Shown: in pieces, positions 12,074-30,980 of the stretch
How positions within the stretch are numbered: position 1 is the stretch's first letter
How the letters are laid out: every line of letters begins with the position of its first letter
DNA from: Schmidtea nova
Lineage: Eukaryota
Assembly (NCBI GenBank): GCA_044892505.1
Contig: CM097882.1
Span: 148,180,001-148,244,000, forward strand
DNA length: 64,000 nucleotides
Direction: 5' to 3'
Translations under genes and position numbers: made by a program
Notes under the pieces: model-generated
The model's input: the letters and a program-made list of their open reading frames with translations, nothing else
Databases searched by the model: none
Told to the model about the DNA's origin: nothing

Positions 12074-12238
12074 ATTTACTCCTCATTGTCGATTCTCTCC
12101 TCTAAGAATCTTGATTGTTTGGTAGTCTGCTTCACTTTCTGCTCTCATTCTACAACAATATTTACATCAATTTCCCCATATTTTTGATTTTTTCTGGTTC
12201 TTTATTTACACGTATTTACACAATTTTCCGCTTATTCA

Positions 12239-12589
12239 CTATACATCCTCAGTTGAATCTGGCTCTGGATACACGTCTATTTCATTTACAATCCAGCTCG
12301 TCCAACTATCCGGTATCTCTTCCTCTTCATGTCTCGTTAATCTGTCAATTTCCTCTGCTTGCCAATTGTTTACTTCATTTAATGTTCGGTTCTCGTTCTG
12401 TAATTCGTTTATCTGTATTTGTTGGATCTCGATTTTGTTCATTGCTTCAAAATTACAGTTATAACTTTCGGTTAGTAATTGCGTTTTGGCCGTCAACTGG
12501 CTCTGTAATTCGTTTATTGTTCTGGCTAGCAGGTCACATTGCACTTTCCATCTTGTCATCATCGACATCTCTGTGGTTTCTTGATTCAT
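12239..12589 (-). CDS. Short coiled-coil protein, 116 aa
   Basis: ATG-initiated heptad-rich ORF with TATAAATA at 12651-12644 upstream. Confidence 0.6.
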   Translation of the reverse strand: MNQETTEMSMMTRWKVQCDLLARTINELQSQLTAKTQLLTESYNCNFEAMNKIEIQQIQINELQNENRTLNEVNNWQAEEIDRLTRHEEEEIPDSWTSWIVNEIDVYPEPDSTEDV

Positions 12590-12823
12590 CGTTTTTCTAG
12601 ATTATATACATCATTCTCTTTTTTCTGTTTTTATGTTTTATAATATTTATACCCATACGTATACGGTTATGCATTGGTTTTTACAATATTATTTACACTC
12701 ATATTCCACCCTCTATACAACTATCACTGGTTTTCCTTCGTACAGTTCCTCGTCCTCGATCTGTACCCACATCTCTTCAAAGGGTACAAAACAAGGATAT
12801 AAAGGTAAGTACGGTTTTTTTAA

Positions 12824-12962
12824 TGACTCATAGGTAAGATTTATTTGGATCACTCATTGGTATGGCTCATTGGTATGACTCATCAGTATGACTCATCAGT
12901 ATGACTCATCAGTATGACTCATTGGTATGACTCATCAGTATGACTCATCAGTATGACTCATC
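12824..12962. promoter_or_regulatory. Tandem 13-bp array of AP-1/GCN4-type sites (ATGACTCAT)
   Basis: Seven TGACTCA at 12876, 12889, 12902, 12915, 12928, 12941 and 12954, plus one at 12824. Confidence 0.75.
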
Positions 12963-13109
12963 AACAAATATTAACAAAGACAATGCAATCCATGTGCAAA
13001 GAAACAAAGACATTGCAATCCATGTGCAACGAAACAAAGACTAATGAAATATAATTTTTAATAATAATAATTTTTTGTACAGAGATAAATTGTGTGTGTG
13101 TGTGTGTTT

Positions 13110-13216
13110 AAGACAAATTACTGTACTCATTGAACGCGCGTTTCACGCGCGTTCTTCTTCCTTGTTTTATAAGACAAATCACAGTACTCATTGAACGCGC
13201 GTGAAACGCGCGTTCT
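13110..13216. repeat. 61-bp tandem unit with a perfect 10-bp-stem hairpin, loop inverted between copies
   Basis: GAACGCGCGT-TTC-ACGCGCGTTC (13132-13154) and GAACGCGCGT-GAA-ACGCGCGTTC (13193-13215); runs into an N-gap. Confidence 0.85.
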
Positions 13217-14389
13217 NNNNNNNNNNNNNNNNNNNNNNNNNNNNNNNNNNNNNNNNNNNNNNNNNNNNNNNNNNNNNNNNNNNNNNNNNNNNNNNNNNNN
13301 NNNNNNNNNNNNNNNNNNNNNNNNNNNNNNNNNNNNNNNNNNNNNNNNNNNNNNNNNNNNNNNNNNNNNNNNNNNNNNNNNNNNNNNNNNNNNNNNNNNN
13401 NNNNNNNNNNNNNNNNNNNNNNNNNNNNNNNNNNNNNNNNNNNNNNNNNNNNNNNNNNNNNNNNNNNNNNNNNNNNNNNNNNNNNNNNNNNNNNNNNNNN
13501 NNNNNNNNNNNNNNNNNNNNNNNNNNNNNNNNNNNNNNNNNNNNNNNNNNNNNNNNNNNNNNNNNNNNNNNNNNNNNNNNNNNNNNNNNNNNNNNNNNNN
13601 NNNNNNNNNNNNNNNNNNNNNNNNNNNNNNNNNNNNNNNNNNNNNNNNNNNNNNNNNNNNNNNNNNNNNNNNNNNNNNNNNNNNNNNNNNNNNNNNNNNN
13701 NNNNNNNNNNNNNNNNNNNNNNNNNNNNNNNNNNNNNNNNNNNNNNNNNNNNNNNNNNNNNNNNNNNNNNNNNNNNNNNNNNNNNNNNNNNNNNNNNNNN
13801 NNNNNNNNNNNNNNNNNNNNNNNNNNNNNNNNNNNNNNNNNNNNNNNNNNNNNNNNNNNNNNNNNNNNNNNNNNNNNNNNNNNNNNNNNNNNNNNNNNNN
13901 NNNNNNNNNNNNNNNNNNNNNNNNNNNNNNNNNNNNNNNNNNNNNNNNNNNNNNNNNNNNNNNNNNNNNNNNNNNNNNNNNNNNNNNNNNNNNNNNNNNN
14001 NNNNNNNNNNNNNNNNNNNNNNNNNNNNNNNNNNNNNNNNNNNNNNNNNNNNNNNNNNNNNNNNNNNNNNNNNNNNNNNNNNNNNNNNNNNNNNNNNNNN
14101 NNNNNNNNNNNNTTTCAACAAATATTTAAAAATAAAAACAAACAGATAAAAATGTCACAAATAACAACCAATTGATAAAAAAAAAATATAATAAAAATTT
14201 TAAAATAAAAAATTTATTTTCCTCAAAATAAATTCGTCACAATAATGTTTGTTAAAAATCAAAATCATCAATATTCTTTTTTCGCGTGAATTTTCTTTTT
14301 TCTTTAAAAATTTTTCTTATTGGCCTATAGTCTATAATAATAATAATAATAATAATAATGAATAAAATAAAATAAAAAATAAATTTACC

Positions 14390-17215
14390 TCAATATATAC
14401 CGGTGGATGTAGATGGCTGATCACGCAATTGCTGCTCCATCCTCACCAGGTATTCGTGGAGTCTGCGTGATTCAGCCGTTTCGCCATCATCGAATTCTTC
14501 ACCGTCATCATCAAATCCATCAGGTTCGGCTGGGGTATTGGTTTGATCATAACCTATAATAGTATTTTCTACCCTATAGTGCCCATATGCGAAACTTTTG
14601 TTTTTCGACACCCAATTGCGTTTGTCGTCGTTGCAATTGAGTGCCGTTTTTGTATTTTTCACACTGTAAACCTGATGATTTTTTGAGACTATACGAAACT
14701 GCGGGACTTTATATATTTTACTTGTTGTGTAACAGTCTAGGTAATTCGAATGGTTAAGTCCCGCAGTAGCCAAACATATGCCCTTGGCTTTTAAACACTC
14801 CTCGTCGCCAAGTAAACCATAGCATTTAGGCCGAAGAAAAACCCACTCTTCATATTTGAAGCCCTTATTTTCGTCCTTAAACTTTCCTATAACAGAATCC
14901 AAATTACGCGAAAATAAGGGATGGCTCGGGTCATAGTTTGAAGTATCTAAAAGTTGATCCCTCACCATAGCGGGCAAAAGAACAGAAAGCCTACAATTAA
15001 CAATTTCAAGAAAAAAGGAGTCTGTGTCTCCTGCTGCAATATTAATCTTACAATTAAACTCTTTCCTATATTTCTCTAACTCTATATATTGTAGTTCATA
15101 CATTCTTAGTTTAGACAAGTCCAAGACCGTCTGTCCTATATAACTTGGCCTATCTAAACACACAGACTCCTTCCTCAAAAGCACTGATATAAGATTATGG
15201 TCAATTTTCGTTGATTTTCTAAAATACGGGCTACTGCTATATGTAATTAATTTACGTGCCGAATTGCACAGTCTTAAATTGATACGTTTTTTCAGATTCT
15301 CTACGATTTTGCCGTAGAGACTGTTATTTAATAACTTAAAATAATTTTTGTCGAGTTTCGTGGTGGAAGAAGCTCTCAAAGCAGTATTTGTATCCACGTA
15401 TTTCTTAAAAAGCCTACTTTGATGATATTTAATAGCTCGATGAATTTTGGTCACTACAACACCTAACCTCAGAAACATCTGCAAAAGTCGCCAATGAAGC
15501 ACATAGTTTTTCTTAGGCATGTGCGTCAAAAGCAACTTATGCACCTTCGAACCTGGCACACACATCTTTTCAGCAGCTACTGGTAAATCATCCAGTAAGT
15601 CGTGAATAGATGCCGGTATCTCTAAATCCACTTCTATGGTATAACCATAGTTAAGTGAACATAAATCAACCGTAGTGCACTCCAACAAGATGTCATGAAG
15701 CAAGTGGTCATCCGTGACCCAAACAAAGTCCCCGTCCGGTAAGTTTTGTGAAAGAGCCCAGCCATACAGATTATTAATATCTATATACAGCAACTCTGTA
15801 TCTGGGCCTGATTTAACATGATGTTTATTAACGAAAGTGAGGCCGCCCCTGATTCCACCCTCAAAAAAGTTGTACATCTCCATATCTTGCAAAAGCTCGA
15901 TAGGAGATTCCAAAGTCATTAATGCAGAACACCAGCTCATACCTGGTATACCCAAAAAATTCAACGGCTCAAGTTTATTATGAGCTATACTCTTTGCACG
16001 AAATTGTTGAAAATAATCAGCCAAAAGAAATATGTCGAGTTTCATGTAAACCATCATATAATCAAATAATGAGGTACACGAATTTTCTCTCCATATTTCT
16101 TTTGCCTTTTCATAATCAGCAATTTCGACACCTTCCCAAATCGGCGGCAATTCAGTGGTCGACCTCAAGACAGATAAAGATGTAGCAACATCATATGGAA
16201 AAATTCCCTTACTGGTGATAATAGTCCCGGTAAATTCCGAAGAAGTAAGAGGAAAAGATGTTAGAGTTTTTACTAAGTTATTTAAAGATTCGCTAGCAAA
16301 TTGATACGAATCGATGAACTTCACTGTGAGTGATCCGATTCTCGCAAAAAGACTGAGAAACTTCTCACTGGTGACAGGAACACAGCTAATGTTCCACGAC
16401 TCGTATTTAGAAAGTCCGAATTTGAGGATATGATGTAAATCATATCCCCGTAGATTATGAAAAACTATCGGCAAAGTGTGTCGAATTTGCCTATTTATAT
16501 TACATTCGTTGCATGCTGCTCCTAGGTAAGCACCTGTAAAGTGATCGTGGTCTTTAACAGGATTTACTAAAATATTTTCACACAAGTAGCAGTGTGTTGC
16601 ATAAGAAAAATGTTGTATGTCTTCGTAGGTTAATATTATTTGCTTATTTTTATTTGCGAAATAATAGGGCGTTACGATTTTGCGACTTATATTTTCAATT
16701 TCTTGCAGGAATTTGGCAACGCAATCAAGGCCATAGAAGGATTTATATAATTTAACCCCAGTGAAATTATTAATAAGTAATAAACCCGCAGAAATGGGCA
16801 AATGTTTTTGGTAATATTTCGAGTCGTGAGGTAAAATTGCCTCAAAATCGGCATAAATTACAAAAGGAGGGGTCACTGTCTTCGTCCAGTCGCTAAAACG
16901 TAAAAATTTATTATTAGGAAGTGTATACAAAGTTGTGCCTATTTGGTTGGCATCACAAAGACCACGATGTCTCTTGAATGTATCTGAATTACGGAAGCCA
17001 TGCAAGCACCTAGGACACCATTTATTATAAATTCTCACTGGGGTTATCGCCGAAGTTTTACAATTTAAAAATTTGTCGATGTTATATATTCCTGCGTAAT
17101 GAAATTCTTTTTTATTTTCAATTAAAAGTAGGTTTATGACAGTGCCCCCCACTACTTTACTTTTATAGATAATATCGATGAATGGATGTTTCATCACTTC
17201 ACTTTTATTAGTCAA
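14390..17215 (-). CDS. polB: Family-B DNA polymerase, Polinton/Maverick (DNA_pol_B_2)-like, with a Zn/endonuclease-VII-like insert
   Basis: ExoI IYADFEA, ExoII FHNLRGYD, ExoIII YMKLD; motif A YIDINNLYG, motif B KLLNNSLYGK, motif C GDTDS; insert CYLC...DHDHFTG...ACNECN. First ATG is at 17194. Confidence 0.93.
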   Translation of the reverse strand: MTNKSEVMKHPFIDIIYKSKVVGGTVINLLLIENKKEFHYAGIYNIDKFLNCKTSAITPVRIYNKWCPRCLHGFRNSDTFKRHRGLCDANQIGTTLYTLPNNKFLRFSDWTKTVTPPFVIYADFEAILPHDSKYYQKHLPISAGLLLINNFTGVKLYKSFYGLDCVAKFLQEIENISRKIVTPYYFANKNKQIILTYEDIQHFSYATHCYLCENILVNPVKDHDHFTGAYLGAACNECNINRQIRHTLPIVFHNLRGYDLHHILKFGLSKYESWNISCVPVTSEKFLSLFARIGSLTVKFIDSYQFASESLNNLVKTLTSFPLTSSEFTGTIITSKGIFPYDVATSLSVLRSTTELPPIWEGVEIADYEKAKEIWRENSCTSLFDYMMVYMKLDIFLLADYFQQFRAKSIAHNKLEPLNFLGIPGMSWCSALMTLESPIELLQDMEMYNFFEGGIRGGLTFVNKHHVKSGPDTELLYIDINNLYGWALSQNLPDGDFVWVTDDHLLHDILLECTTVDLCSLNYGYTIEVDLEIPASIHDLLDDLPVAAEKMCVPGSKVHKLLLTHMPKKNYVLHWRLLQMFLRLGVVVTKIHRAIKYHQSRLFKKYVDTNTALRASSTTKLDKNYFKLLNNSLYGKIVENLKKRINLRLCNSARKLITYSSSPYFRKSTKIDHNLISVLLRKESVCLDRPSYIGQTVLDLSKLRMYELQYIELEKYRKEFNCKINIAAGDTDSFFLEIVNCRLSVLLPAMVRDQLLDTSNYDPSHPLFSRNLDSVIGKFKDENKGFKYEEWVFLRPKCYGLLGDEECLKAKGICLATAGLNHSNYLDCYTTSKIYKVPQFRIVSKNHQVYSVKNTKTALNCNDDKRNWVSKNKSFAYGHYRVENTIIGYDQTNTPAEPDGFDDDGEEFDDGETAESRRLHEYLVRMEQQLRDQPSTSTGIY

Positions 17216-17242
17216 GTCAACTAACGCATTTTCGTCATACGA

Positions 17243-17329
17243 TGAGTCATCGATGACGTCATTTATGAGTCATCGGGGGTCATGGATGACTCATCGATGA
17301 CGTCATTTCCTTTGTTCTGCGATGACTCA
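17243..17329. promoter_or_regulatory. Cluster of four AP-1 (TGA[C/G]TCA) and two CRE (TGACGTCA) sites in the ank-polB spacer
   Basis: AP-1 at 17243, 17266, 17287 and 17323; CRE at 17254 and 17298. Confidence 0.7.
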
Positions 17330-17345
17330 TGGTGCACACTTCTGT

Positions 17346-18614
17346 CTACTTCCACTGTATTGCGATATCCATGATGGAATTGTTCTTTCCATTTTTCCCT
17401 TCGATTTTGGCTCCTGCTTCGTATAACTCGTTTAGCACTTTGCAGTTCGTCTTCTTCCTTGCTGCGATTATCATGATTGTATCTCCGTTATCATCAACCG
17501 TATTCATATCTGCTTCGCACTTGACCATTGCTTTCGTTATTTCTAGCACTTCGTTTTCTTTCTTTCGACGTAATGCCCAGTGTATTGGCAATCTCCCATC
17601 TTTTGATAATAGGAATGCCACTGGCATTTGATTTTTGATCGTTTCTATGTCGGTCTCGTTATAATCTCCTTGTGCGTATCTGTGCACTTTCTCTGTAATT
17701 GCTCCTAATATCTCCAACGAATTTTTATTCTCTTTGAATTCCGATAATCTTTCCTGCGCTTTTGCTACGATTGCGTCTAGTCTCTCTTGGTAATCAGCTT
17801 TTGCGTTGAACAACACTGCTTTGCTTCTTATTCGTGTTTGCATCTGTTTCATCCGTTGGTCTTGATACACTGCTTGTCGGAAGAATTGTCCATACTTCAA
17901 TGCTTCCACCAGCTCTTTATATCGCTTGCTTATTTCTTTGTGCTGCTTTTGGATGTCATAGAAATGTTCGAAGCTCATATCCGGATTCCATTGCTTATCA
18001 CACCATTTCTTGATTAATCCGAATAATTCCCTCTTTCTGTCTTCCAACTTGTATTCTCTTGGGTTCTCGCTAACTCGTAACGTATCTCTCGCTATCAATA
18101 CTGCAAGTGTTTTTGGATCGTACGTTACTTCTAATAGATGTTTCAGTAACGCATTTTCTCCCCCTGTGAACACTTCATTACAATCTATGACCCACGAATC
18201 TCCTTCTGGCCGTTTCCACTTTAGCAATATTCTCCAGGTTCTACTGTTTCTTACTCCGATTGCTTGTTTCAGGATAGATCCTCTGGTTAGTTCATCGATT
18301 TCCCACGTGGCATTTTCCGTAATATACTTCAGTATTCGGTGATTCGCTCTATCAATTGCATGATTCAAGAATGTTCGTCCTTCTTTATCTTTTGTCATCC
18401 AATTCGATCTGGTGTTTCCGAAAAGCTTGATTATTTCATCGTTTCTTCCATGAATCGTCATCATCATAAGTGGAGTGATTCCTTCCCAATTTATTTTGTC
18501 GATCTCTCCTCCACCCTCGAGTATCATCTCTACGATCTCTTTTACTTTTTCGTTTCCACTGTGCTTGATTGCATTGTGCAACGCTGTGTTACCGTCTTTG
18601 TCTTGTAGATTCAA
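17346..18614 (-). CDS. Ankyrin-repeat protein (in-frame continuation of pol after one TAA)
   Basis: Repeats QDKDGNTALHNAI, NWEGITPLMM, KDKEGRTFLNHAI, SKDGRLPIHWAL, DDNGDTIMIIAA. There is no ATG start: the frame reads TAA-ACA-TTG directly after pol. Confidence 0.88.
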   Translation of the reverse strand: MNLQDKDGNTALHNAIKHSGNEKVKEIVEMILEGGGEIDKINWEGITPLMMMTIHGRNDEIIKLFGNTRSNWMTKDKEGRTFLNHAIDRANHRILKYITENATWEIDELTRGSILKQAIGVRNSRTWRILLKWKRPEGDSWVIDCNEVFTGGENALLKHLLEVTYDPKTLAVLIARDTLRVSENPREYKLEDRKRELFGLIKKWCDKQWNPDMSFEHFYDIQKQHKEISKRYKELVEALKYGQFFRQAVYQDQRMKQMQTRIRSKAVLFNAKADYQERLDAIVAKAQERLSEFKENKNSLEILGAITEKVHRYAQGDYNETDIETIKNQMPVAFLLSKDGRLPIHWALRRKKENEVLEITKAMVKCEADMNTVDDNGDTIMIIAARKKTNCKVLNELYEAGAKIEGKNGKNNSIMDIAIQWK

Positions 18615-18617
18615 TGT

Positions 18618-21600
18618 TTAAGGGATTTCCTCTAACAGCGTCCTTGTTATTGGATGTGCTGTTCTATCCTTTGCATACTCCATTACATTCTTTCGAACTT
18701 CTGTCAATATATTGAAATCGAGCCACCATTTCCATTCTGGTATAATTTCTCTGGTCCTCTTTGCAAGTTCCTTGATGTCTATTGCTTCTCTTCGATTGTC
18801 TTCTAGACTTGCTTGCGGCTTTGGTTGTACTCGCAACATATTAATTCTCGCCGTCTGTGATCTTGTCATCACCCGTTTCTCTGGTGATAGAGTTGCTGTC
18901 TTTGATATTTTCCTGCATCGACATGCATTCACGTATATTGGTCTTACCAATGGATTGTTCACCAATCGTACTCGCACATTATTTTCGTTCACTGTTGTTA
19001 TTTCATATGGCCCTTTGCCTGGTCGTTGGAGTTTCTTCACCGTACCGGGTATTATCTCTGGTGTTTCGATTATCACCCAATCTCCAACTTTTAAATCATG
19101 TGCTTTCACATTCTTTTTCTGATCATGCAGATCCTTGTAACTCTCTTGATAGAACTTGATGTTTAGTTCCGCCGTTTTCCAGATTTCTTGCATTCTTTCT
19201 TTGAACTTTGTAACGTAATCGTCAACCTCCATATACTGTGATAATGGTGGTTGGTACTCCAAATCGATTGGTAAGTTGCAATCTCTTCCGTACATCAGTT
19301 GGAATGGACTTAGCTTTGTTGCCGCATGTATTGACATTCTGTATGCCATTAAACACAGGTTTATATACTCGTCCCAGTCAGTCTGATGTTTACTGACGTA
19401 ATTTGACAACATGCCTATCAATGTTCCATTGAATCTTTCTGTTTGTCCGTTCGTTTGTGGATGGTATGGGGATGTTCGTAATTTCGCAATTCGGAAGTAG
19501 TTCGTAACTTCGTCTAATATTTCACTCATGAAATTCGTTCCTTGATCCGTTAGGATTTTCTTTGGTGTTCCGTATCTGCAGCATATCTCTTCCACCAATA
19601 TTCTCGCGACTGTTTTTGCCTTTTGATTCGGCATTGTGAATGCTTCTGGGAACTTTGTTAGATAGTCCGTGACTACTAATATATACTGATTCCCTTTTAA
19701 ACTTTCCGGCAATGGCCCAACTACGTCCATTGCTATCGTCGCCATAGGTTCTGCAGGTATTGGCATAGGTTTCAGTGGTGTTTTCCACTTCGTTCCGACG
19801 TTCTTTCTTGTCGCACAGGTTACGCAGTTCTTTATCCATTCTTTCACATCATCTTCCATGGTTGGCCAAAAATACTTTTGCCTCAATCTCCCGATTGTCT
19901 TTTTCGCTGACATATGTCCGCCTAATTTTCCGTCATGATATTGAGTCATGATTTCCTTTCGTCTATTCGCAGGTAAGCACATCAATCTCCGTTCTCCATC
20001 TTGTATCAATAACCATCCTTTTTCCAACACGTATCTATGTTGATATTTCTGCATATGTTCGCGTAACACTTGGTTCTTGCCGAATATTTCTATCCCCCTT
20101 TCTTTCAAATACTTGCTGATCAATCCCAACTCCTCGTCTTCGAGTTGATCTTTCCTTAATTCGCTGAAATCCAAATCCTCCGCTATTAATGCACATATTT
20201 TTAGAGCGTTCAGGTTCACCAATTCTGGAAATGTAAACCTTGACATGCAATCCGCGTTTGCATTTGATTTTCCTGCTTTAAACTTTATGAACGGTGAGTA
20301 TTCTTGTAACTGCATCGCCCAACGCATCAATCTACTTGATGATTCTTTATGTTGACCTAACCATACCAATGGTTGATGATCCGTCGAGATATATATTTCA
20401 TGACCCCACAATAGGTATTTGAAATGCTTGATTGCCAATATTATCGCATAGGCTTCTCTTTCCGTGACTGAGTAATTTCTTTCATGCTTCCTGAATGTTC
20501 GACTGTAATATCCAATTACTCTTTCCTTGCCTTCTTCATCGAATTGGCCTAGTACTGCTCCTGCTGCATATCCACTTGCGTCTGTTGCCAACAGAAATGG
20601 CTTCTTAAAATCTGGATGGACCAATATTGGCGCTGTAATCAGCTTGTCTCGTAATGTCTCAAATGCTGCTTGCTGTTCTGCTCCCCACACAAACGACACA
20701 TCTTGTCTTACCAATTCCTGCATTGGCTTTGATATTCCTGCATAGTCCTTGATAAACTTTCGATAATATCCACACAATCCCAAAAATTCTTGTATTTGAG
20801 TCACTGTCTTTGGTGGTGGACATTCTTTGACTTTCTCAATATTCCTTGGATCTGGTTCTTTACCTTTTGCTGATACAATGTGACCTAAGAATGTCACTTT
20901 CTCTTTTGCCCAATCGCATTTGGACGGCTTCAATTTCAGTTTCCACTGTCTCAATTTCACGAACACATTTCTGATATCTTGTAAGTGATCTTCAAATGTT
21001 GCGGAGTAGATTAATAGATCGTCGATATACACCATGCATTGTTTTATGCCATGTGTTACGAAATTCATGCATCTCTGGAATGATGCTGGCGCGTTTGTTA
21101 ACCCAAACGGCATTTTCTTGAATTGGTACAGATCTCGTCCGATTGTGAAAGCTGTCTTTTCTTTATCCTCGTCTTTCATTTTTATCTGCCAAAATCCGCT
21201 TTTTAAATCCAGTGACGTGAAATAGGCTGCTCCTTGTAGCGTCAACAACATTTCGTTTATGTCTGGCAGTGGGTACGTGTCTCTTTTCGTAACGGCATTT
21301 AATCGTCTGTAATCGATACAGAATCTCTGAGTTCCATCCTTCTTTTTCACCATCACCACTGGGAATTGCCAGGGTGAGCAACTAGGTTCGATGACCTCTG
21401 CATCTAACATCTTTTGTACCTCTTCTTCTGCTACTGCTTTTTGAGCTTCTGCCAGTTTATATGGTCGTAATGCGATTGGCGTTTCGTCCGTCAACGGTAT
21501 CGTGTGTAATGTTACATCGCATGTTCCTAAATCTAAATCCGATGCTGCGAATATATCTTGATACTCCATCAACAGTTTCTGTAGCTGTTCTTTTTGTCGT

Positions 21601-24317
21601 TCATCCAACAACACACTGTCGATTTTCCATGGTAATTCGCCTTTGCCTTTCTCATTCTTGTCTGGTATTTCGATTTCGGACATGGGTGTCAATTTACCCA
21701 AATTCTCATTCTCGTATATTATCTTGTCCTCTTCGTTGAAGTTTACCAGATTAATCGGTATCTCACCTTCTTGGTTTATCGTAACCAGTTCTCTTGCCAT
21801 TGGTAATTCCTTCTTCGCTTCGAACTTCTTACTTGGTTCGAATATCATGTCTCCTTTTATTGTCGAATCGATCTTGACATAGCACATCATTTCGTGCCTC
21901 GCTGGCACTACTATTTGTTCCGCATTTGCCACTTTAACTTTCATTCTGCAGATTTTTCCTGTTCTATCTTTTAGTTTCATTGCTCCTAGATCAATTACGA
22001 TTTCCTTGAACAGGTCTGGCATCAGGTCAGTTCCAATAATACATGGTACACTCAGCGATGGTATTACAGCGATGTACGTGTTGATCTCTGCACCTCGATG
22101 CTTAATTTTTACAAACCATCTTCCGGCTACTTCTACTGTCTCTTGACTGCACGCGATTACATGTACATTCGTCTTCTCGATTTCTCCTTGGTTTTTCTCT
22201 GGTATATAGTTAATGTCGATTGCTGAAATATTTGCGCCTGTATCGATCATGGCTTCGATTTCTCTTCCGTTTATTTCTACGGTTGTTGTTAAGATCGGTC
22301 CCATATTTGTGGACATAACTGCTATCGTGTGTGTGTCTTCTAACGAGTCTACGCTTCTACCTCGTTTTACTTTGCATCCTTCGGGAATTATCGGGTATAT
22401 ACTTGTCATCGGCATCATCTGTATCATATTCGGCTTCGCTTTGTATATCGGTTCGTTATACATTGACTGAGGTGGAGCGCTGTATCTCCAATTCTCAACT
22501 GCACTCTTTTCGTTATACTGTGGGATCTGGTTTATATTCGCTTGTCCTCCTTGATCGTCATCGTCATCGTTGCTTGAATCATCTTGTGTTCGATATCCCC
22601 TCACTCTTTCCCATAATCCTTTCCTTTCTTTCTTTAGTTGTCGTCTTGCTTGCTCATCTTGCATTATCTTTTTGAATTTCCTTCCAACATCTTCATTTGT
22701 TCCTTTCATTTTTGCAAGTATTTTCAACAATCTCTTTATTCGATGTATGTCTTTTGAGTGTCCGTGTAACACCATTGTTTTCGCGAGAAATGGTAAATAC
22801 CCTACTACCATTTTCCAATTCACTTTCTTTTCTCTCTTGTAGATATCGAAACACGCTAACATTTGCGTAATTATCACTCTGACGATTTGTATTATCAATA
22901 TAACACCCAGTATTCCAGCCATCATTTGTCCGAATATCAGGAATCTTCCCCACATTGCCTTCATCATATTTTCTGTGGCTTTCTTGAAATGTGCCGGTGA
23001 CAACAGCAGTTCATAATTCGGTCCTTCTCGATAATTCGTTCCTCCCGTTATCGTTACGATATTTGACAGTAATGCTTCTCTTCTTGCCGGGAATAATATA
23101 TTCTGCCTTGCTGCTTCCAAATCTTTTGGACTATAGATTCCGTTGTTTGAGACATCTACGTCGCTGAATTGTCTATCTTTTGATAACTGCATTAGCTCAA
23201 ATTCTCTTGGTGCTATCACTTCGGTTCTTCCTGGGAACATAACCCATTTGCCATCTGGCTTCTGATAAAGCGGTCCGTACGCGTTACTACAGTTGAATGG
23301 ATTTGGTTCAAAACCTGGTGGATTGATGATTCTCGTCACCGGTTGAACGTATCGTACTTTTCCTTTATAATCGATTTCTAGTTCGTTTGTACATTGTCCA
23401 GGTTTCAACTGCGTTGTTGCTGCTAGCGATGCATGTGTCTTTTCGCAAATGTATACATACATTGCCTCTCCAACCACTCTTCCGAAATGTCCTTCTCTCA
23501 GTGGTAATAATGGCATCGCGCTATCTGGATTAGTAATCGCTACGGCCAACTTTGTCTTCAATATTTCTCGATTCAGTATACAATCGTTGTTTATCAGATC
23601 GTAGTACACTTTTTGTAATGAGGCTTGTCCTCTATGGAATAAGAAGTCCATTTTATTATTCACATACAAGTGTAGTTTGATATCCATTGTGTCGATTTTG
23701 GGTTTCGCATTCGGCACTTCCTGCTTTGACACGTATATTCCTGGATAGTTCGTTTCGTATACCGTTGTACTACACTTAAGGGTTGCTTTCCCTTTTATGA
23801 ATCTCATTCCCACATCCTGATTTGTGGTTATCAACACTGTTGGTGTGGTTCTCATCTCTATCCGTTTTTCTCTATGATCTGGTTTCAGTTGTCTTTTGTT
23901 CTCTAAAGCCTCTTTGAGATGTTTTGCTCTAGCTTTGTCATCATCGTCTTCTTCCTGGAACGTTTTTCCTTGAATTTCGTCGAACTTTGCTCCTTGTAGC
24001 AGTTGTAATTGACATTCGTTCATTTTTGGTTTGTATACCAATGTTGACATTCCCGTTTGACACATGCTCCTGTCAATTTTACACATGGATAACGTTTTCA
24101 TTTCTCCTGTGGTCGGTTCGAAGAATGCTTCGTAGCTTTTCAGTTCGACTATATACGTATCCATCACCACTAAGTTGGTTGCGGGTACTCCGAATATTGG
24201 GTAGGTTTCTCCTTGACAATATCCTTCTCCTCCCGTAATCCGTCCTGCTACATAATACGTCTGTTGCAACATCATTCGTGGTTTTCCTTTTATCTTTATT
24301 TTGTCTCTCGTTGTCAC
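18618..24317 (-). CDS. pol: Env(C-terminal part)-Pol fusion ORF: class III glycoprotein ectodomain and TM, then PR, RT, RNase H, integrase
   Basis: Glycoprotein segments YVNNKMDF...NDCILNREIL, GEAMYVYIC, NGIYSPKDL...ILFP and TM FLIFGQMMAGILGVILIIQIV. PR IDTGA; RT YIDD; RH TDAS, TDHQPL; IN H-H-C-C, MDVVGP, TDQG, TERFN, GPY. Confidence 0.96.
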   Translation of the reverse strand: MTTRDKIKIKGKPRMMLQQTYYVAGRITGGEGYCQGETYPIFGVPATNLVVMDTYIVELKSYEAFFEPTTGEMKTLSMCKIDRSMCQTGMSTLVYKPKMNECQLQLLQGAKFDEIQGKTFQEEDDDDKARAKHLKEALENKRQLKPDHREKRIEMRTTPTVLITTNQDVGMRFIKGKATLKCSTTVYETNYPGIYVSKQEVPNAKPKIDTMDIKLHLYVNNKMDFLFHRGQASLQKVYYDLINNDCILNREILKTKLAVAITNPDSAMPLLPLREGHFGRVVGEAMYVYICEKTHASLAATTQLKPGQCTNELEIDYKGKVRYVQPVTRIINPPGFEPNPFNCSNAYGPLYQKPDGKWVMFPGRTEVIAPREFELMQLSKDRQFSDVDVSNNGIYSPKDLEAARQNILFPARREALLSNIVTITGGTNYREGPNYELLLSPAHFKKATENMMKAMWGRFLIFGQMMAGILGVILIIQIVRVIITQMLACFDIYKREKKVNWKMVVGYLPFLAKTMVLHGHSKDIHRIKRLLKILAKMKGTNEDVGRKFKKIMQDEQARRQLKKERKGLWERVRGYRTQDDSSNDDDDDQGGQANINQIPQYNEKSAVENWRYSAPPQSMYNEPIYKAKPNMIQMMPMTSIYPIIPEGCKVKRGRSVDSLEDTHTIAVMSTNMGPILTTTVEINGREIEAMIDTGANISAIDINYIPEKNQGEIEKTNVHVIACSQETVEVAGRWFVKIKHRGAEINTYIAVIPSLSVPCIIGTDLMPDLFKEIVIDLGAMKLKDRTGKICRMKVKVANAEQIVVPARHEMMCYVKIDSTIKGDMIFEPSKKFEAKKELPMARELVTINQEGEIPINLVNFNEEDKIIYENENLGKLTPMSEIEIPDKNEKGKGELPWKIDSVLLDERQKEQLQKLLMEYQDIFAASDLDLGTCDVTLHTIPLTDETPIALRPYKLAEAQKAVAEEEVQKMLDAEVIEPSCSPWQFPVVMVKKKDGTQRFCIDYRRLNAVTKRDTYPLPDINEMLLTLQGAAYFTSLDLKSGFWQIKMKDEDKEKTAFTIGRDLYQFKKMPFGLTNAPASFQRCMNFVTHGIKQCMVYIDDLLIYSATFEDHLQDIRNVFVKLRQWKLKLKPSKCDWAKEKVTFLGHIVSAKGKEPDPRNIEKVKECPPPKTVTQIQEFLGLCGYYRKFIKDYAGISKPMQELVRQDVSFVWGAEQQAAFETLRDKLITAPILVHPDFKKPFLLATDASGYAAGAVLGQFDEEGKERVIGYYSRTFRKHERNYSVTEREAYAIILAIKHFKYLLWGHEIYISTDHQPLVWLGQHKESSSRLMRWAMQLQEYSPFIKFKAGKSNANADCMSRFTFPELVNLNALKICALIAEDLDFSELRKDQLEDEELGLISKYLKERGIEIFGKNQVLREHMQKYQHRYVLEKGWLLIQDGERRLMCLPANRRKEIMTQYHDGKLGGHMSAKKTIGRLRQKYFWPTMEDDVKEWIKNCVTCATRKNVGTKWKTPLKPMPIPAEPMATIAMDVVGPLPESLKGNQYILVVTDYLTKFPEAFTMPNQKAKTVARILVEEICCRYGTPKKILTDQGTNFMSEILDEVTNYFRIAKLRTSPYHPQTNGQTERFNGTLIGMLSNYVSKHQTDWDEYINLCLMAYRMSIHAATKLSPFQLMYGRDCNLPIDLEYQPPLSQYMEVDDYVTKFKERMQEIWKTAELNIKFYQESYKDLHDQKKNVKAHDLKVGDWVIIETPEIIPGTVKKLQRPGKGPYEITTVNENNVRVRLVNNPLVRPIYVNACRCRKISKTATLSPEKRVMTRSQTARINMLRVQPKPQASLEDNRREAIDIKELAKRTREIIPEWKWWLDFNILTEVRKNVMEYAKDRTAHPITRTLLEEIP

Positions 24318-24761
24318 TTATCCATGTTTAAACAATGCTTCGCAGTCTTCTCCTTGCAACACGATTGGTTCTCTTTCCGTTCCTGACATGACAATTGCTG
24401 AATAATGTCCTCTCCCACAGTAGAATGCGAATCTCGTCTTCTGCACCTTGCATTCATTCACCATTGTCTTTATGAGTTCTGCTTCTTGATACACGTGGTA
24501 CCATTGTTCCTTTTTAATCTCTCTCAACTCTACTGGAGTTGCATCTTTGCATTGCTCCGTACCTCTCAATGAGTACTTTTCTCCCAATTTCATTTGATCA
24601 CAATCAAATACTTCGAACGTTGTTACACCTTCTGTGCTTAACAACCATACTAACATCATCATGATTATCGAGTTTAAATTCAACGTCGATCTTCCGTTTC
24701 CTTGCATCGTTTGTCTATTCTCCATTTCTTTCAATACTCCTTCGAGTTTCTTTCTCATCAC
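24318..24761 (-). CDS. env: Envelope glycoprotein N-terminus (signal peptide plus first Cys-rich segment), split from the rest by one in-frame TAA
   Basis: Hydrophobic NSIIMMMLVWLLSTEG, then FEVFDC...C...YHVYQ...ECKV...FYCG..H, as in chuvirus-like glycoproteins. Same frame as 18618-24317; ATG at 24758. Confidence 0.85.
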   Translation of the reverse strand: MMRKKLEGVLKEMENRQTMQGNGRSTLNLNSIIMMMLVWLLSTEGVTTFEVFDCDQMKLGEKYSLRGTEQCKDATPVELREIKKEQWYHVYQEAELIKTMVNECKVQKTRFAFYCGRGHYSAIVMSGTEREPIVLQGEDCEALFKHG

Positions 24762-24779
24762 GTTAGACCCTTCTTTTGT

Positions 24780-25427
24780 CTATTTCTCTTTTATGAACTT
24801 TTCCCATCCTCCTTTTCTGAGGATGTAGGGTTCAATTTCTTTCTCGATAATCATCGCCGTATTCTTGATATGTCTTCCCATCGGACTTGACTTCGGACTT
24901 CCTCGGCTTAGCGTTAACAAATTGTAAATCGTATACGAGATTGCCACTAAATATTTGCTATCCGTCTCTGCTCCGTTAAGTAGCCTTTTTATTAACATCG
25001 TGGTTCCTTGCCAATCTAGATGGTTCGATTTTGTTTTTGCTTTGATTAATTCTGGCATGATCGGTGCTATTGCATTGTGTAGCATCTTTGCCTTTGTACT
25101 AGGTTCATTTATTCGCCACAAATTTTTTAATTCCGGGTCGATTATTGCTAACACATCCATTATCGTTTTGGTGAGCCATTCCTCTCCTTGACAAACTTGA
25201 TTCTCCTCTTTTCCTCTGATCTCTGCGATTTTATCTAATTTCTTCAAGCAAATCTCCCATTGCTCTTGTCTCTTTTCTTCCCTTGTCTTTGGGATTGTTG
25301 TTGCTGGATCTATCTTTGGTCTTCCTCTTGGTCGTTTTTCCATTCCAGTTTCCATTCTACAAATCTCGCTGCTCTTCCGGTTTCTTCTGTAACATCTCTT
25401 CCTTCGTTCGCTCGCTGTTCCAACCAT
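24780..25427 (-). CDS. Bcl-2-like protein with an N-terminal AT-hook-like motif
   Basis: BH2-like EPYILRKGGWEKF; BH1-position LDWQGTTMLI; helical pattern; KRPRGRPK. Confidence 0.65.
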   Translation of the reverse strand: MVGTASERRKRCYRRNRKSSEICRMETGMEKRPRGRPKIDPATTIPKTREEKRQEQWEICLKKLDKIAEIRGKEENQVCQGEEWLTKTIMDVLAIIDPELKNLWRINEPSTKAKMLHNAIAPIMPELIKAKTKSNHLDWQGTTMLIKRLLNGAETDSKYLVAISYTIYNLLTLSRGSPKSSPMGRHIKNTAMIIEKEIEPYILRKGGWEKFIKEK

Positions 25428-28400
25428 CTTTCCATTTCTTGAGTAAACTGGGGTTGTTCTTGCTCGTCTTCTGAATCGTTTACCATTTCTATGACTACCT
25501 CCTGTTCCACTCCTTGATCGTCGATTTCTGCTGGTGACGTTATTGGCATCTCTATTATTCTGTCGAAAATATTCGCCGTTGGTTTTTGAGTCAACTTCGT
25601 TAATTCTTCTATCGCTTCGTCACTGTCTGTTAATATCTCATCTACGTCATATGCTTCTGGCGGTGTTCTCTCTCTCGTTTTTATTGGTGTTGTCCTTGTT
25701 TGTCCCGAACTTGTTCCTGGGATCATTGTTGACTTCATCGGACTTGGTGCACTCATGCTTCCTTTCGCTTTCTTTTCCTCTTTAAACTTCAGTGGTTGAC
25801 CCACTATCTGTGCCACTGTTAGCGTATTCATAAGATCCAATTGTACTGGTGTCAGCCAGATTTCTAAGTTATTATCCAACGATCGTCCTTGATGTTGCAG
25901 GTGGAATGGTAGTTCGTACATCAGTTTCTCTTTAACACTTTTCACTTTCTCTGTTAGCATCACCCAAAACTCTTCTTTTCTTTGATTCGGATACATTATC
26001 CTCAAATGTATTTTCTGTGGCGTTTCTTCCGCAAATTCTTTGTTTCTCCACTTTTTTATTACATTGTCTAGTTGCTCTGGACACCACTCATTAACTCTTT
26101 TGTATTCTGCTGTCGCTTTAGCTACTTTTCTCAAGTTCGTTATGTCTTCTCCATTTGCGATTATGAATTGTGCTAAGCCTTTTATTGTTTGTCTTTTCCC
26201 CCGAGTATTTCCTCCCAACAGTTCTATTAATTCCTCCGTTTTCTGTTTCTCCAATTCTGCCCATATTACTGCAGTTTCTGGTCCGTCTAAGTCCGTTGGT
26301 AATAACCTCCTTGTTACCATACATATTCGTTTCGTATTCAGTTCATATCTGTCTTCTCCTTCCGGATCTTCTTCATACACGCCTCTTGTTACTTTCCAAC
26401 ATTTCTCTTTGTCGTCCCATTGTTTCTCTACTGGCGTCAATCGTCGTCTGTTAAGATCCAATTCTCCCAATATTGTCTCCCATTCTGGCTTTATCTGCCA
26501 GTTCCGATAGATTTCTACTATCTGCCTCAACTTGCACATAATGTCTTCTTGTCGTGCCTTTTTCCTTTCCTCATCTCTTGGTGTTGCTCTTGGCACGTCA
26601 TCCATTCTGATGACATGTATTGTCTGATAATTGTCCCATATGCCGATTTTATACGCTCGTCTTTCGTCACGTTCATTCAGTAGATGTTCGTCTTCCCGTT
26701 CTCGTTGTAATATCGTCTCATTGATGACATCTACTATTTCTCCTACTTTACTATCTGGTATTACCTCAATTTGTCTTGTCTCTTCGTTTGGTAATCTCAC
26801 GGTGATCTTCAGATCTGATACCTCTCCTCGCTTAAACATTTCTTTCCCCATCTTTGCAATTAGCTTGTCCGTTTTGAAGTTCGAATGTCTCGTTTGACTT
26901 GTATCTCGTATGTTCTCGATACATTGCTTCAAATTCCCATACTCGCTTTTTGTCAATTCCTTTCGATGTTTCTTGATTTGTTGGATGATCTGCTCTATCA
27001 TCGTATTCAAATTCTCTGCCAAAATTCTTTCTTTTGCCTCTAGCAACTGAGGTTTTATTCTCATCTCATAACACGTATTCGCTTCTTTGACGATTCCTTG
27101 TAAGTTCTCTTCCTTCTTGGTGTTGCATATAGATAACGTCGTTATTTCTCCTGGCCAGATGCCTGTGTCTATCATATGCGTTCCTTTTCTCACCAATCCG
27201 TTTTCCGAATATATGAATTTGTCTTTGTACGAGCTTCCCAATCTGTCTTCAACCCATCTGTAAATTCCGTCCGTCATTGGGTTCTTTATCCAGATTCTCG
27301 GTGAACACTCGTTTATCCATATTTGTATTATGTATTCGTTGAGTGGTTCTTTCAATAACTTCTCTATGAACTCCTGTATTACCCTCACTTCTCTTTCTTG
27401 TAACCACTCTTTATACTTCGTTTGCCATACTGCTCGTATGAACTTTCGGTATCGTTTCTTGTCGATAAACTCCTCGTTATGGATTACTTCCAACGCATTA
27501 TCCATCAGCTTCTGGATTTCATCTTCCTTTACTGACACTGTTTCTATTGTCTCGACCACTTCCATCTTTTTGTCCTCGTTTTCCGGTTCCTTTAGCATGT
27601 CTCCTGCCAGACTGCTAACTTCGCTATCGTCTTCTTCATCTGACAACTCTTGTCTTGGGTGTCTCAGCATCCCAATATGCGCGGTTGGTCTCGCTTCGTT
27701 TTTGCTAACTTCCTGTATTAGTTCATTCTCTTCTCCCGTTATTTCGACTTTTCCCATCCTCTTCTTCAATTCGTCTATTTCTTCCAACCGTCTTCGTCTT
27801 ATTTTTCCCTTAAATATTCGACTGATCCGAGTTTGATGTTTCACTGGTGGTGGGATTTTCTCCGGTTCCACCTCTCTGATGATCATCACGTTTATTTTTG
27901 TCTCCGTTACTCCCATATCTTCCCATATATCAGTCATCTTTAACTTCACTTCTGGCAAATCCTCTGTTTGTAGGAATGCTTCTCTGGGCAGTTTCGTTAC
28001 TCCCGGAATCATCTCATTTACTTTATTGAACAGTCTTTCCACTTCTTCTTTTACATCGTATTTGAATCGAAACACGTGATCATTCGGCATGATCACCAAC
28101 ATTCCTCTTTGTTTGATTCTCACTTCTTCTTCTTGATTCGCTTCTTTTTCTGTTTCTTTTTCTGTTTCTGTTTCTTTTTCTACTTCTTCAACTTTTTGAT
28201 TCTGCTCTGCGGCTTCTACTTCTTGATTCACTTCTTCTTGTTTTTGCTCTTCTTTTCTTTTCTCTTTAACTTCGAATTCGTCCGACTCATCTTGCTGCTT
28301 CTCTTCCATCATTGCTCGCATCATGTTGATCCTTGGATTTCCCTTTTTTAACTGTTGTAACCGTTGTTGTCTGACTTGTTCTTCTTCTCGTCGTATTCTA

Positions 28401-29632
28401 GCCCATTCTTGATTATGCTTCTGTTGACTCTCCCTATTTTCTCTTTCAGCCTCAGCTTCTATTACCTGGATCATGTTTATCTTTGGTTGAGCAGCTTGTT
28501 GGCTTCCCTTTGCCATGCTTTCGATTATCTCGTGTAATCTAGATACCTCCTGTCTCAACTTGGCTTCTTTCATACTGGCTTCGTTTGTACTGCTATTCGG
28601 GTTGTTACGTTGTTGACCCTGATTCCCATAGCTTGGTCGATTTCCGTAATTCTGTCTATTTCCACTGTTTGACCAACTTCTCTGTTGATTACACTCTCTT
28701 GACATGTGTCCCGCTTTTCCACATGTGTAACACGTTTTCCCATAACATCGATTCTCCGAATGACCTTTTTGTCCACACAGTTTACAGGCTACATTCTGAA
28801 AACAATCTTGTTGCCAATGTCCGTTTTTCCCACACGTCTGACATTGCCTATTCTGTCTGTCATTGTAACTATTTCCTCCATTCGTATTCGCCGTGATATA
28901 TCCGTTATTCTTCCTCGCTGGCGGTTCTTTGAACAATCTCTGTGAATGGGGAATACTTTGATTCATGTTTCTTTTTCCTTGTTCTTCATCTTCTGTCGTT
29001 TTTCCCATTACCGCCGTAATTCTCATGTCGTTCATTGCCATATGCAATTCGAATAGGTTGGCTGCCTCCAACGCTTCATCTACTGTTTTACATCCTTTGC
29101 ATCCCACTTGTGCTCTGATGTCAGGTCTCCTGAGACCTCGTACAAATAACGCTGTCATCAATTCCTCATCCACTGGGCTTCCTCTGTTGAATGCCAGTTT
29201 CGCCAACTTTCTTAATTCACTTGCGTACACTGCATTTGACTCATTTCTCTTCTGTTTTCTTGCTGAAAACTCATCGAATGCTTCATTCAGCACTTTATTT
29301 ATTCCAAACGTCTGTTGGAAGAACTCCTTGATTGTTTCCCACGTTCTGGGTGGATTACTTCCAGATCTCTTTTCAATATACAGATCCAATGCGCTATCTT
29401 TCAAGTATAGCGGGATTCGATTTGCTAACGTTTCTGCACTCCATCCGCATATATCCACGAATATGCCAAATTCCTTTAGAAACGTGTCCAATCTACTGGC
29501 GTCTCCATTGAATGGTTCGCCCTTGAATTTTTCTCTCAGATCCTCTCTGTGATCACTCATCCCGATTCCACTGTCTTGGAATACTGTACTAGTTTTCTTT
29601 GCTTCTATTTCACCACTTGTTTCTGGATTCAA
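25310..29632 (-). CDS. gag: Gag (capsid, three CCHC zinc knuckles) with a very long C-terminal extension
   Basis: Retrotransposon-gag-like PFNGDASRLDTFL...LYLKDSALDLY; knuckles CQTCGKNGHWQQDC, CKLCGQKGHSENRC, CYTCGKAGHMSREC. The frame stays open without an ATG up to 30007. Confidence 0.93.
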   Translation of the reverse strand: MNPETSGEIEAKKTSTVFQDSGIGMSDHREDLREKFKGEPFNGDASRLDTFLKEFGIFVDICGWSAETLANRIPLYLKDSALDLYIEKRSGSNPPRTWETIKEFFQQTFGINKVLNEAFDEFSARKQKRNESNAVYASELRKLAKLAFNRGSPVDEELMTALFVRGLRRPDIRAQVGCKGCKTVDEALEAANLFELHMAMNDMRITAVMGKTTEDEEQGKRNMNQSIPHSQRLFKEPPARKNNGYITANTNGGNSYNDRQNRQCQTCGKNGHWQQDCFQNVACKLCGQKGHSENRCYGKTCYTCGKAGHMSRECNQQRSWSNSGNRQNYGNRPSYGNQGQQRNNPNSSTNEASMKEAKLRQEVSRLHEIIESMAKGSQQAAQPKINMIQVIEAEAERENRESQQKHNQEWARIRREEEQVRQQRLQQLKKGNPRINMMRAMMEEKQQDESDEFEVKEKRKEEQKQEEVNQEVEAAEQNQKVEEVEKETETEKETEKEANQEEEVRIKQRGMLVIMPNDHVFRFKYDVKEEVERLFNKVNEMIPGVTKLPREAFLQTEDLPEVKLKMTDIWEDMGVTETKINVMIIREVEPEKIPPPVKHQTRISRIFKGKIRRRRLEEIDELKKRMGKVEITGEENELIQEVSKNEARPTAHIGMLRHPRQELSDEEDDSEVSSLAGDMLKEPENEDKKMEVVETIETVSVKEDEIQKLMDNALEVIHNEEFIDKKRYRKFIRAVWQTKYKEWLQEREVRVIQEFIEKLLKEPLNEYIIQIWINECSPRIWIKNPMTDGIYRWVEDRLGSSYKDKFIYSENGLVRKGTHMIDTGIWPGEITTLSICNTKKEENLQGIVKEANTCYEMRIKPQLLEAKERILAENLNTMIEQIIQQIKKHRKELTKSEYGNLKQCIENIRDTSQTRHSNFKTDKLIAKMGKEMFKRGEVSDLKITVRLPNEETRQIEVIPDSKVGEIVDVINETILQREREDEHLLNERDERRAYKIGIWDNYQTIHVIRMDDVPRATPRDEERKKARQEDIMCKLRQIVEIYRNWQIKPEWETILGELDLNRRRLTPVEKQWDDKEKCWKVTRGVYEEDPEGEDRYELNTKRICMVTRRLLPTDLDGPETAVIWAELEKQKTEELIELLGGNTRGKRQTIKGLAQFIIANGEDITNLRKVAKATAEYKRVNEWCPEQLDNVIKKWRNKEFAEETPQKIHLRIMYPNQRKEEFWVMLTEKVKSVKEKLMYELPFHLQHQGRSLDNNLEIWLTPVQLDLMNTLTVAQIVGQPLKFKEEKKAKGSMSAPSPMKSTMIPGTSSGQTRTTPIKTRERTPPEAYDVDEILTDSDEAIEELTKLTQKPTANIFDRIIEMPITSPAEIDDQGVEQEVVIEMVNDSEDEQEQPQFTQEMERWLEQRANEGRDVTEETGRAARFVEWKLEWKNDQEEDQR

Positions 29633-30516
29633 CTCTTCTTCTTCACTACTCTCTGTTTCGTTATCTCTTGATTCGCTTCTTGTTCTGTTTTCACTGACTA
29701 GTTCACTGTCTATCGTTTCTACTTCGTTTTGTACTTCTAGATCCTCTGGGGTTTCTTCTTGATTCTCTTTATTACTCGAATTATCGCTGATCTCTGCTGG
29801 TTTATTCTTTTGTTGCGCTGTTTTATTTCCTGGTCTTGTCTTTTTCGCTGTTTTTCTTTCTTCTTCTGTTAGGATCGCTTCTGTGTTGACCTTTTGTTGC
29901 GCTACTTTAGCTGCTGCTTTTGCCTTTTTTGCTGCTTTTCTTTCTGCTTCTGTTAGGATTGGTATTATACCTGTCCTTGTTTCGCGTTCCGTAATTTTGT
30001 CTATTACTCAACTTCTTATATTCTCAACTGATTTTTCTACTTCGCTTTTGCTTTGCTTCTTCTTCGATTTGGTTCCTTTGATTGCTCTGACTGCTAGATT
30101 GCCTTGATTTGCTTGATTGATTTGTTTCCTTAAAACAAATAATCACTTACACGATACATCCCCGTTATCGTGTTTCTCGTCCCTCTCACGGGTGTAGTCA
30201 TAATTCATGAAGATCCCCATTTTTCCCATTTCCCTTGATTTTAAGTCTATTTAAATTATCTATGCAGTCGTATAAATTATCTATACTTCATCAAATACAC
30301 CAATTACTTTTCCCCAGTTCCCCAATTACTTTGTCGCTCAGCGCTTTTATTATCCCCTTTATTTTCCTCAGGCTTCTCTGGCTCTGAGTTTAAATTTCCC
30401 CTTATCTATCGACTACTCTGTCTCTCGACTACTCACTCGCACTCTTAACTGTGTTAACTACTTCATTTCAACTCTCATCTCTACTCACCTTTAATTTAAC
30501 TGACATCTCTCGTTGG

Positions 30517-30980
30517 CCTGTTGGGCTTTCCAATCAGCGCCTTTAATCTCACCTGTTATCTCGACTTTATTTCTCTCAACATCACTCATTATCCCATTAG
30601 CCTGCTGGGTTTTCCAGTCAGCGCTTTTAATCTCACTTTTTACTCCTGCTTCGTTATTCTCGACCTCGATTGTCGTTTCTTTAGCCTGCTGGGTTTTCCA
30701 GTCAGCGCTCTTATTATCCTCCGTTTATCTCTTTACTATCGACCTTTAATCGTTCTTTACTCCGATGATCATCACTTTTTGACCTGCTGGGTCTTCCAGT
30801 CAGCGTCCTCAATTTCACTACTTTATTATTACTCACTTTTATTCTCTCGATCTTTCCTGATCGTTATCATTGACCTGCTGGGTTTTCCAGCTAGCGTCTT
30901 TACCACTTTACCTGTCTTAACAAACCGGTTTCATTTTACTCTCGTCGAATCTCATGGTCTGCTGGGTTTTCCAGTCAGCA
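30517..30980 (-). repeat. Six copies of a 23-nt hairpin motif separated by 60-75-nt dissimilar spacers
   Basis: cctgctgggttttccagtcagcg-like copies start at 30517, 30601, 30685, 30783, 30874 and 30958. Confidence 0.9.

Follow-up and report, generated by a model that had tools for sequence, protein, structure and literature searches.

We found that copies of a giant Ty3/gypsy element in the genome of Schmidtea nova encode Gag, the envelope glycoprotein (Env) and the polymerase (Pol) in a single reading frame that continues to a C-terminal transmembrane (TM) segment. Judging from sequence features, we consider it somewhat probable, on balance, that this is a membrane-threaded Gag-Env-Pol chain, in which Pol would hang on the cytosolic side of Env and enter particles by its own anchor. 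The window, by which we mean the whole stretch of DNA analysed (64,000 nt, positions 148,180,001 to 148,244,000 of contig CM097882.1, assembly GCA_044892505.1), contains a damaged copy of such an element, which is of the Burro type, and the stretch under study (18618..24761) is its env-pol part.

A damaged Burro-type element in the window

The element spans 5480..36745 on the minus strand (31,266 nt, with 3.2-kb LTRs), a length that by arithmetic would become ~29.3 kb if the nested insert were swapped for the sister length. The minus-strand ORFs follow the order RING, Gag, 279-codon, 153-codon, 1899-codon, ankyrin, PolB-like and TRAF-like, and four ORFs from 25619 to 17346 have a common frame and are separated by single stops. 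The features are as follows.

36746..36749, second copy 5476-5479, unstranded: target-site duplication of 4 bp, CAGG, read from the sequence
33543..36745, minus strand: 5′ LTR, TG...CA, ~3.2 kb, containing ORFs of 194 and 219 codons
33519..33536, minus strand: primer-binding site, starting 6 nt behind the 5′ LTR
32525..32998, minus strand: accessory RING-finger ORF upstream of gag (PF13920, E 5e-9)
25310..30007, minus strand: Gag, with CCHC knuckles and a first Met near 29560, and middle part of the polyprotein
24780..25619, minus strand: ORF with a BCL2-like domain (~24790-25300), by profile match to Bax
24618..24700, minus strand: internal signal-peptide-like segment, by hydropathy, with a signal peptidase site predicted at its end; dN/dS 0.035
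22926..24617, minus strand: predicted class III (gB/chuvirus-G-like) Env ectodomain, interrupted by the stop 24318-24320
22760..22925, minus strand: Env TM helix (22869-22925), followed by a weaker hydrophobic segment, by hydropathy
22287..22759, minus strand: linker between Env and protease, polar, basic then acidic, by sequence
22014..22286, minus strand: aspartyl protease (PR), DTGA at 22244 (PF00077)
20298..21350, minus strand: reverse transcriptase (RT; YIDD) and RNase H (RH) (PF00078, PF17917, PF17919)
18618..19973, minus strand: integrase (IN) (PF17921, PF00665); the stop 18618-18620 is private to the window copy
17346..18617, minus strand: ankyrin-repeat part of the polyprotein, in the same frame as Env-Pol
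12780..17349, minus strand: nested PolB-encoding element, incomplete, 4.57 kb, replacing 2.59 kb present in sisters
10736..12082, minus strand: accessory TRAF-like ORF (RING, zinc finger, MATH); the sister ORF matches PF22486, PF21355, PF02176 and PF21363
8888..10676, minus strand: two more accessory ORFs from the ORF list, one of 396 codons and coiled-coil-like, one of 176 codons with hydrophobic stretches
5480..8685, minus strand: 3′ LTR, TG...CA, pairing with the 5′ LTR

The element thus has the PR-RT-RH-IN order, CCHC Gag, TG...CA LTRs, primer-binding site and short target-site duplication of Ty3/gypsy (Metaviridae) elements; the primer-binding site is, we assume, tRNA-Pro-like. Short-repeat arrays with units of 36 nt and about 50 nt lie at 30500-31810, in the leader that separates gag from the RING ORF, a conserved domain of ~100 aa lies between PR and RT in the window family, and the two accessory ORFs at 8888..10676 gave no Pfam match above the cut-off. 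The two LTRs are 99.6% identical across 3206 nt, yet this copy has four coding breaks and its nearest sisters are only 96-97% identical; possibly the decayed copy was mobilised in trans after decay, or its LTRs were homogenised. Elsewhere the window holds a second Ty3/gypsy-like pol ORF without env (46189-49686, plus strand, 1165 codons, motifs by eye), transposase-like fragments at 45650-46204 and 38560-38973, and a 465-codon ORF at 50101-51498.

Burro (GYPSM1) of planarians is described, in the text section devoted to it, as a ~30-kb Ty3/gypsy element with one ORF1 of 4,873-5,140 aa that starts with Gag and CCHC knuckles and continues with a BCL2-like domain and an env, with mononegavirus fusion-protein matches, in frame before PR; ankyrin repeats and MATH/TRAF are also present, and BIR, SUMO-like and dUTPase-like domains were identified by HHpred (PMC6431247). 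According to the text of a further account, BURRO1 RNA rises on loss of SMEDWI-2 (PMC8532177). The window family resembles Burro in its giant size and multi-kb LTRs, its single ORF of ~5,000 aa, its env in frame between the BCL2-like domain and PR, and its ankyrin and MATH/TRAF cargo. Unlike in Burro, TRAF/MATH forms a separate ORF downstream of the polyprotein ORF, and no BIR was found; Pfam gave no match to BIR, SUMO-like or dUTPase-like domains in the window element or sister ORFs. By the features tested, the element would be grouped with Burro.

The BCL2-like assignment comes from a profile of four family members that matches Bax at E 0.003, a weak match that rests on related families: Pfam Bcl-2 matched three of the four members but not the window family's own sequence, and phmmer with that family's domain alone found no BCL2 structure.

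Eight of 20 sister copies are open from Gag to a C-terminal TM segment

A DNA search of the genome (best 40 scored of 894 candidates) gave 30 loci picked by similarity, the window among them. The frame is open from the signal through RT in 21 of the 29 sisters, the remaining eight being broken, each elsewhere. The stop at 24318-24320 (Env residue 147), which splits the window's env, occurs at that place in none of the 29. Up- and downstream flanks were taken for the 20 best-scoring sisters: in 12 of them nothing interrupts the frame between Gag and the Env TM, in 13 it is open from PR onwards, through the ankyrin repeats and about 870 further residues, and in 8 the whole frame is unbroken from Gag to the C-terminal TM. 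The stop 24780-24782 is also private to the window copy (0/20 sisters). All 12 sisters with an open upstream stretch have their first Met at codon 122, from which the polyprotein of the unbroken sisters has about 4,960 residues (by arithmetic), in the order Gag, BCL2-like, signal, Env, TM, PR, RT, RH, IN, ankyrin, second signal, FN3-like ectodomain and TM.

The window copy cannot itself produce this full chain, and its Gag frame terminates early after a frame change near 25350. We rejected programmed frameshift or read-through at its breaks, since the sisters are open there and each copy is broken elsewhere.

The initial annotation had taken 18618-24761 as one open frame, with Gag as a separate ORF. 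The frame is indeed common to this stretch, but in the window its env part is interrupted by a stop, and in sisters it runs on past IN. In 12 of the 20 sisters no break parts Gag from the Env TM, so gag does not stand apart as a gene in this family, and the separate Gag ORF of the window is an effect of damage in that copy. The idea that Gag is a gene apart and that Env-Pol begins at its own ATG at 24758 fits the ORF map of the window copy alone; it is hardly credible given that none of the 20 sisters has a stop at that place, that no Met is conserved before the signal, and that Gag and Env also share a frame in two other families and in the database proteins P0004, P0015, P0021, P0023 and P0024.

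A second sample, picked by protease alone (best 40 scored of 530 candidates, giving 30 loci including the window), had env directly upstream in 30/30, and the Env TM and PR lay in one open frame in 27/30; env-less copies numbered 0/30. The in-frame position of env upstream of PR-RT-RH-IN, first noted in the window, therefore holds in sister copies, including at the junction between TM and PR.

These counts also bear on splicing, which could produce distinct mRNAs, for a Gag-Pol that lacks env or for an Env-Pol started from a leader, so that the genomic single frame would not be the main product. The env of Drosophila gypsy is made from spliced RNA, and splicing would solve the stoichiometry problem that a single chain poses; moreover, in the window family Met codons occur 13-30 residues ahead of the signal core. 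We nevertheless regard this explanation as quite improbable: every protease-picked copy retains env, a crude scan of 12 sisters (a weak test) detected pyrimidine-rich acceptors neither upstream of the signal nor in the stretch from TM to PR, and the frame is open across all junctions at dS 0.1-0.2, which argues that read-through translation is selected. Over 20500-27500, contigs of four runs of unknown kind, possibly DNA and so silent on splicing, had splice-type ends for the element strand in 0/15 joints.

Pairwise dN/dS was computed from unbroken stretches alone, 12 upstream and 13 downstream; the pairs are non-independent and the values descriptive. We obtained 0.035 for the signal region, 0.03 for the ectodomain, 0.044 for the BCL2-like domain, 0.04 for PR, 0.013 for RT and 0.022 for IN, and dN was 0 for the Env TM among 12 sisters. 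The signal region, Env, PR, RT and IN are under purifying selection in sister copies.

Internally deleted copies (L056, L116, L119, L126, L129, L133) have lost RT-IN and retained env and PR.

Env has the predicted fold of a class III fusogen

PF24664 (Monjiviricetes_fusion) matches both pieces of the window's split env, with E 1.3e-11 and 1.8e-55. We predicted the structure of a sister ectodomain from an 87-sequence alignment (pLDDT 88.6) and compared it with 48,161 chains using VIA-align; ranks 1-11 were all class III fusogens. The best match was herpesvirus gB (HSV; Z 9.4, rmsd 7.3, 402 aligned), with HCMV gB (Z 8.7) below it and rabies, Chandipura and thogotovirus proteins lower. Furthermore, the Env sequence profile also finds gB, weakly (E 0.007), and 13 cysteines are at least 90% conserved among the 87 ectodomain sequences. 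The class III ectodomain proposed from the window alone is thus upheld by profile and fold matches alike, and Env is predicted to be a gB/chuvirus-like fusogen. The further succession described at the outset is likewise found in one frame: a signal-like hydrophobic stretch at about 24618-24700, the Env TM helix (KD19 2.55), a linker of ~200 residues, PR (DTGA), RT (YIDD), RNase H and IN.

A predicted internal signal and a proposed cytosolic Pol

Topology was derived from hydropathy and from motif rules written for this analysis: a signal required a 10-mer KD of at least 2.2 plus a small-residue site by the -3/-1 rule, which over five candidate sites is permissive. We applied these rules to 21 relatives, namely three families of this genome and 18 database proteins in which a longer chain encloses the N-terminus of Env. 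A signal-like segment precedes Env in 20 of the 21 (10-mer KD 2.4-3.5), the sole miss being P0005 (1.92), and in each of the 21 it belongs to the highest-scoring 1% of sequence windows. Between its end and the conserved [FY]DC with which Env begins lie 6-14 residues. As a Met lies within 12 residues of the segment in only 6 of the 21, it would be internal and not a start; by these simple rules it reads as an internal signal peptide.

In the window family this signal is modest (KD19 1.52) and sits some 1,640 residues into the chain, which would suit a signal used part-time, untranslocated chains serving as cytosolic Gag-Env-Pol that supplies Pol to capsids and translocated chains supplying Env. 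The strong, conserved h-region of the relatives speaks against such partial use, and an unfolded cysteine-rich domain of 550 residues within a cytosolic Gag-Pol would presumably be a poor assembly substrate; we hold part-time use to be very improbable.

The Env TM follows the signal by 524-560 residues in all 16 relatives measured. Behind it, a weaker second hydrophobic segment (KD19 1.0-1.7) is present in 16/16; if this segment crossed the membrane, Pol would end up in the lumen and the model would fail. The Env TM is flanked by basic residues on either side, with no clean inside bias of charge. The simplest threading would keep Gag-BCL2 in the cytosol, with the signal as its anchor, place Env in the lumen, and leave the part from PR to ankyrin cytosolic between two anchors. 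Pol had initially been proposed to be made as the cytoplasmic tail of Env: its cytosolic side is still the best reading, but the route would be co-translational cleavage at the internal signal of a single Gag-Env-Pol chain.

A putative second glycoprotein after the integrase

The window carries the 4.57-kb PolB element in place of 2.59 kb that in sisters encode a second signal, an FN3-like ectodomain and the C-terminal TM; the intact post-IN stretch absent from the window is found, for instance, in sister copy L051:5764-7707. Behind a second signal-like segment it has an ectodomain bearing 8 sequons and FN3-like motifs, which leads through a stalk to the C-terminal TM. All complete relatives share this layout, with a sequon-rich ectodomain, and the post-IN region is, from these features, likely a second type I glycoprotein. 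A second signal and a terminal TM after IN occur in the window family, in both other families (L102, L104) and in P0002, P0003, P0006, P0007, P0008 and P0013. The window family's C-terminal part contains two signal-like segments, which the simple type I model leaves unexplained. The dN/dS of the C-terminal ectodomain is 0.08-0.25 (12 of 20 copies), and the ectodomains of different families gave no mutual alignment at E below 0.01. It has no Pfam match; FN3 identity (Atlas score 0.79; single-sequence model, pLDDT 38) is a lead only.

The nested insert is an incomplete copy of a ~7.7-kb element with inverted terminal repeats and one ORF of 1357 codons for a family-B DNA polymerase (motifs by eye), for which Pfam gave only Endonuclease_7 (E 0.0013). 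We take it to be Polinton-like. Other copies include L151-L153, and 39/39 listed other copies (of 2495 candidates) are 100% identical over 544 nt; it looks like a very young minimal element. That PolB is cargo of a subfamily was rejected: 0/20 sisters carry it, and 39/39 other junction matches lie on the PolB side only.

Relatives with the same order and the timing of Pol release

A family search of the genome (best 68 scored of 3413 candidates) yielded at least two more families in which a single frame covers Gag, Env, PR, RT and IN, their RT being 47-48% identical to that of the window family. These families (L071-L112) have four CCHC knuckles and no ankyrin repeats, and their env dN/dS is 0.12 in the 18 of 30 loci used. 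The same order is found in database proteins P0002-P0009, P0013, P0020, P0021 and P0023, the last reading Ty3 capsid, CCHC, Env, PR, RT, RH, IN. Env and PR share one chain in eight database proteins of 1582-3865 residues, six of them also with RT and IN, and among the best 150 of 938 representatives the top matches are long chains in this order, most lower ones being stand-alone glycoproteins of ~650 residues. The distribution suggests that the Gag-Env-Pol single-chain arrangement is old.

Two to four aspartyl protease domains, mostly with intact DTG/DSG, are present in relatives P0002-P0011, P0016 and P0021; at least one lies between the Env TM and RT, and in six proteins another directly follows IN. 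Such tandem proteases might dimerise within one chain. The window family has a single protease domain, and ankyrin repeats occupy the place after IN.

Many relatives have a protease beside each anchor, and the one protease of the window family lies about 200 residues past the Env TM; such placement would fit a release in cis at an early stage. The polyprotein and topology could then be as proposed while the tether is brief: the protease would free Pol at the ER, and Pol would join Gag through genomic RNA or protein contacts, as it does in foamy viruses, so that Env would not deliver it. Retroviral proteases, however, normally activate by dimerisation during assembly, and the window family has only one protease domain; we think such a brief tether unlikely.

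Proposed mechanism

The model that we favour is the membrane-threaded chain whose Pol enters particles by its anchor. Directed by the internal signal, the Env ectodomain would enter the ER lumen; host signal peptidase would cut behind the signal, parting Gag from Env-Pol, as signal peptidase does at the HCV core-E1 junction (PMC5402940). The cleaved signal would likely remain as membrane anchor of the Gag-BCL2 half. The Env TM would stop transfer, leaving PR to ankyrin as a cytosolic loop, which the second signal would close while starting the second type I glycoprotein. The Gag and Env-Pol halves would then meet on the same membrane, Pol would enter particles via its anchor and not as Gag-Pol, and the element's own protease would free Gag, RT and IN. 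Against this model, a 1:1:1 output of Gag, Env and Pol is awkward, and so is a trimeric Env carrying a dimeric protease.

A wider picture is possible but doubtful as a whole: Burro-type elements may be retroviruses built like flaviviruses, with a membrane-threaded chain, Pol packaged as a loop between two anchors, an Env signal peptide doubling as a BCL2-mimic tail anchor, a fast-diverging FN3-like glycoprotein as attachment protein for the gB-type fusogen, and, in relatives, duplicated proteases beside the anchors freeing Pol. The polyprotein of Flaviviridae likewise starts with capsid, internal signal, envelope and TM, continues with protease and polymerase, and is cut by signal peptidase and a viral protease. 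The likeness is one of analogy without homology, as the fusogen here is class III and not class II and the elements are reverse-transcribing.

Discussion

Unlike in a canonical errantivirus or a chuvirus-G Bel/Pao element, env does not lie downstream of pol in the window family. This order, which the initial annotation had presented as new, is already described: an in-frame env between gag and pol was published for Burro in 2019 (PMC6431247), and a second study reports gB-type GAG-ENV-POL errantiviruses in Nematoda, Bryozoa and Platyhelminthes and lists six Schmidtea elements (PMC13524379). The window family shares with the latter a gB-type env between gag and pol, and its env shares most motifs, by eye, with Smed_errantivirus_5 and _6 (PMC13524379). 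The main text of that study treats ORF order and not the making or packaging of Pol, with 0 occurrences of "polyprotein", "in-frame", "fused" or "Burro", and it cites the nematode ERVs of Sacco et al. 2022 as a case of env before pol in a metavirus (PMC13524379). The window family and these nematode elements both place env before pol. The latter reportedly have a continuous gag-env-pro-pol ORF and are said to be compact and without apoptosis and ubiquitin cargo, unlike the window family, in which such cargo is present.

The text section on Burro mentions no internal signal peptide, membrane topology or second glycoprotein after IN, although its figure may differ (PMC6431247). Within the literature compared we found no account, for these elements, of a Pol tethered by Env, of such a topology, of cleavage at an internal signal, of a second glycoprotein or of the additional proteases of relatives; Grohme 2018, Sacco 2022, figures and supplements may treat the topology or the C-terminal protein. 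The gene order is therefore in print, while the working of such a chain is not, within that literature.

Taken together, if the predicted topology is true, a multi-phylum class of elements would package its enzymes without a Gag-Pol precursor, a route that to our knowledge is not known in retroviruses and errantiviruses, and such elements would carry a two-glycoprotein entry system. With at least three such families in this genome, represented by many unbroken copies under purifying selection, the question is answerable with tissue RNA and proteomics.
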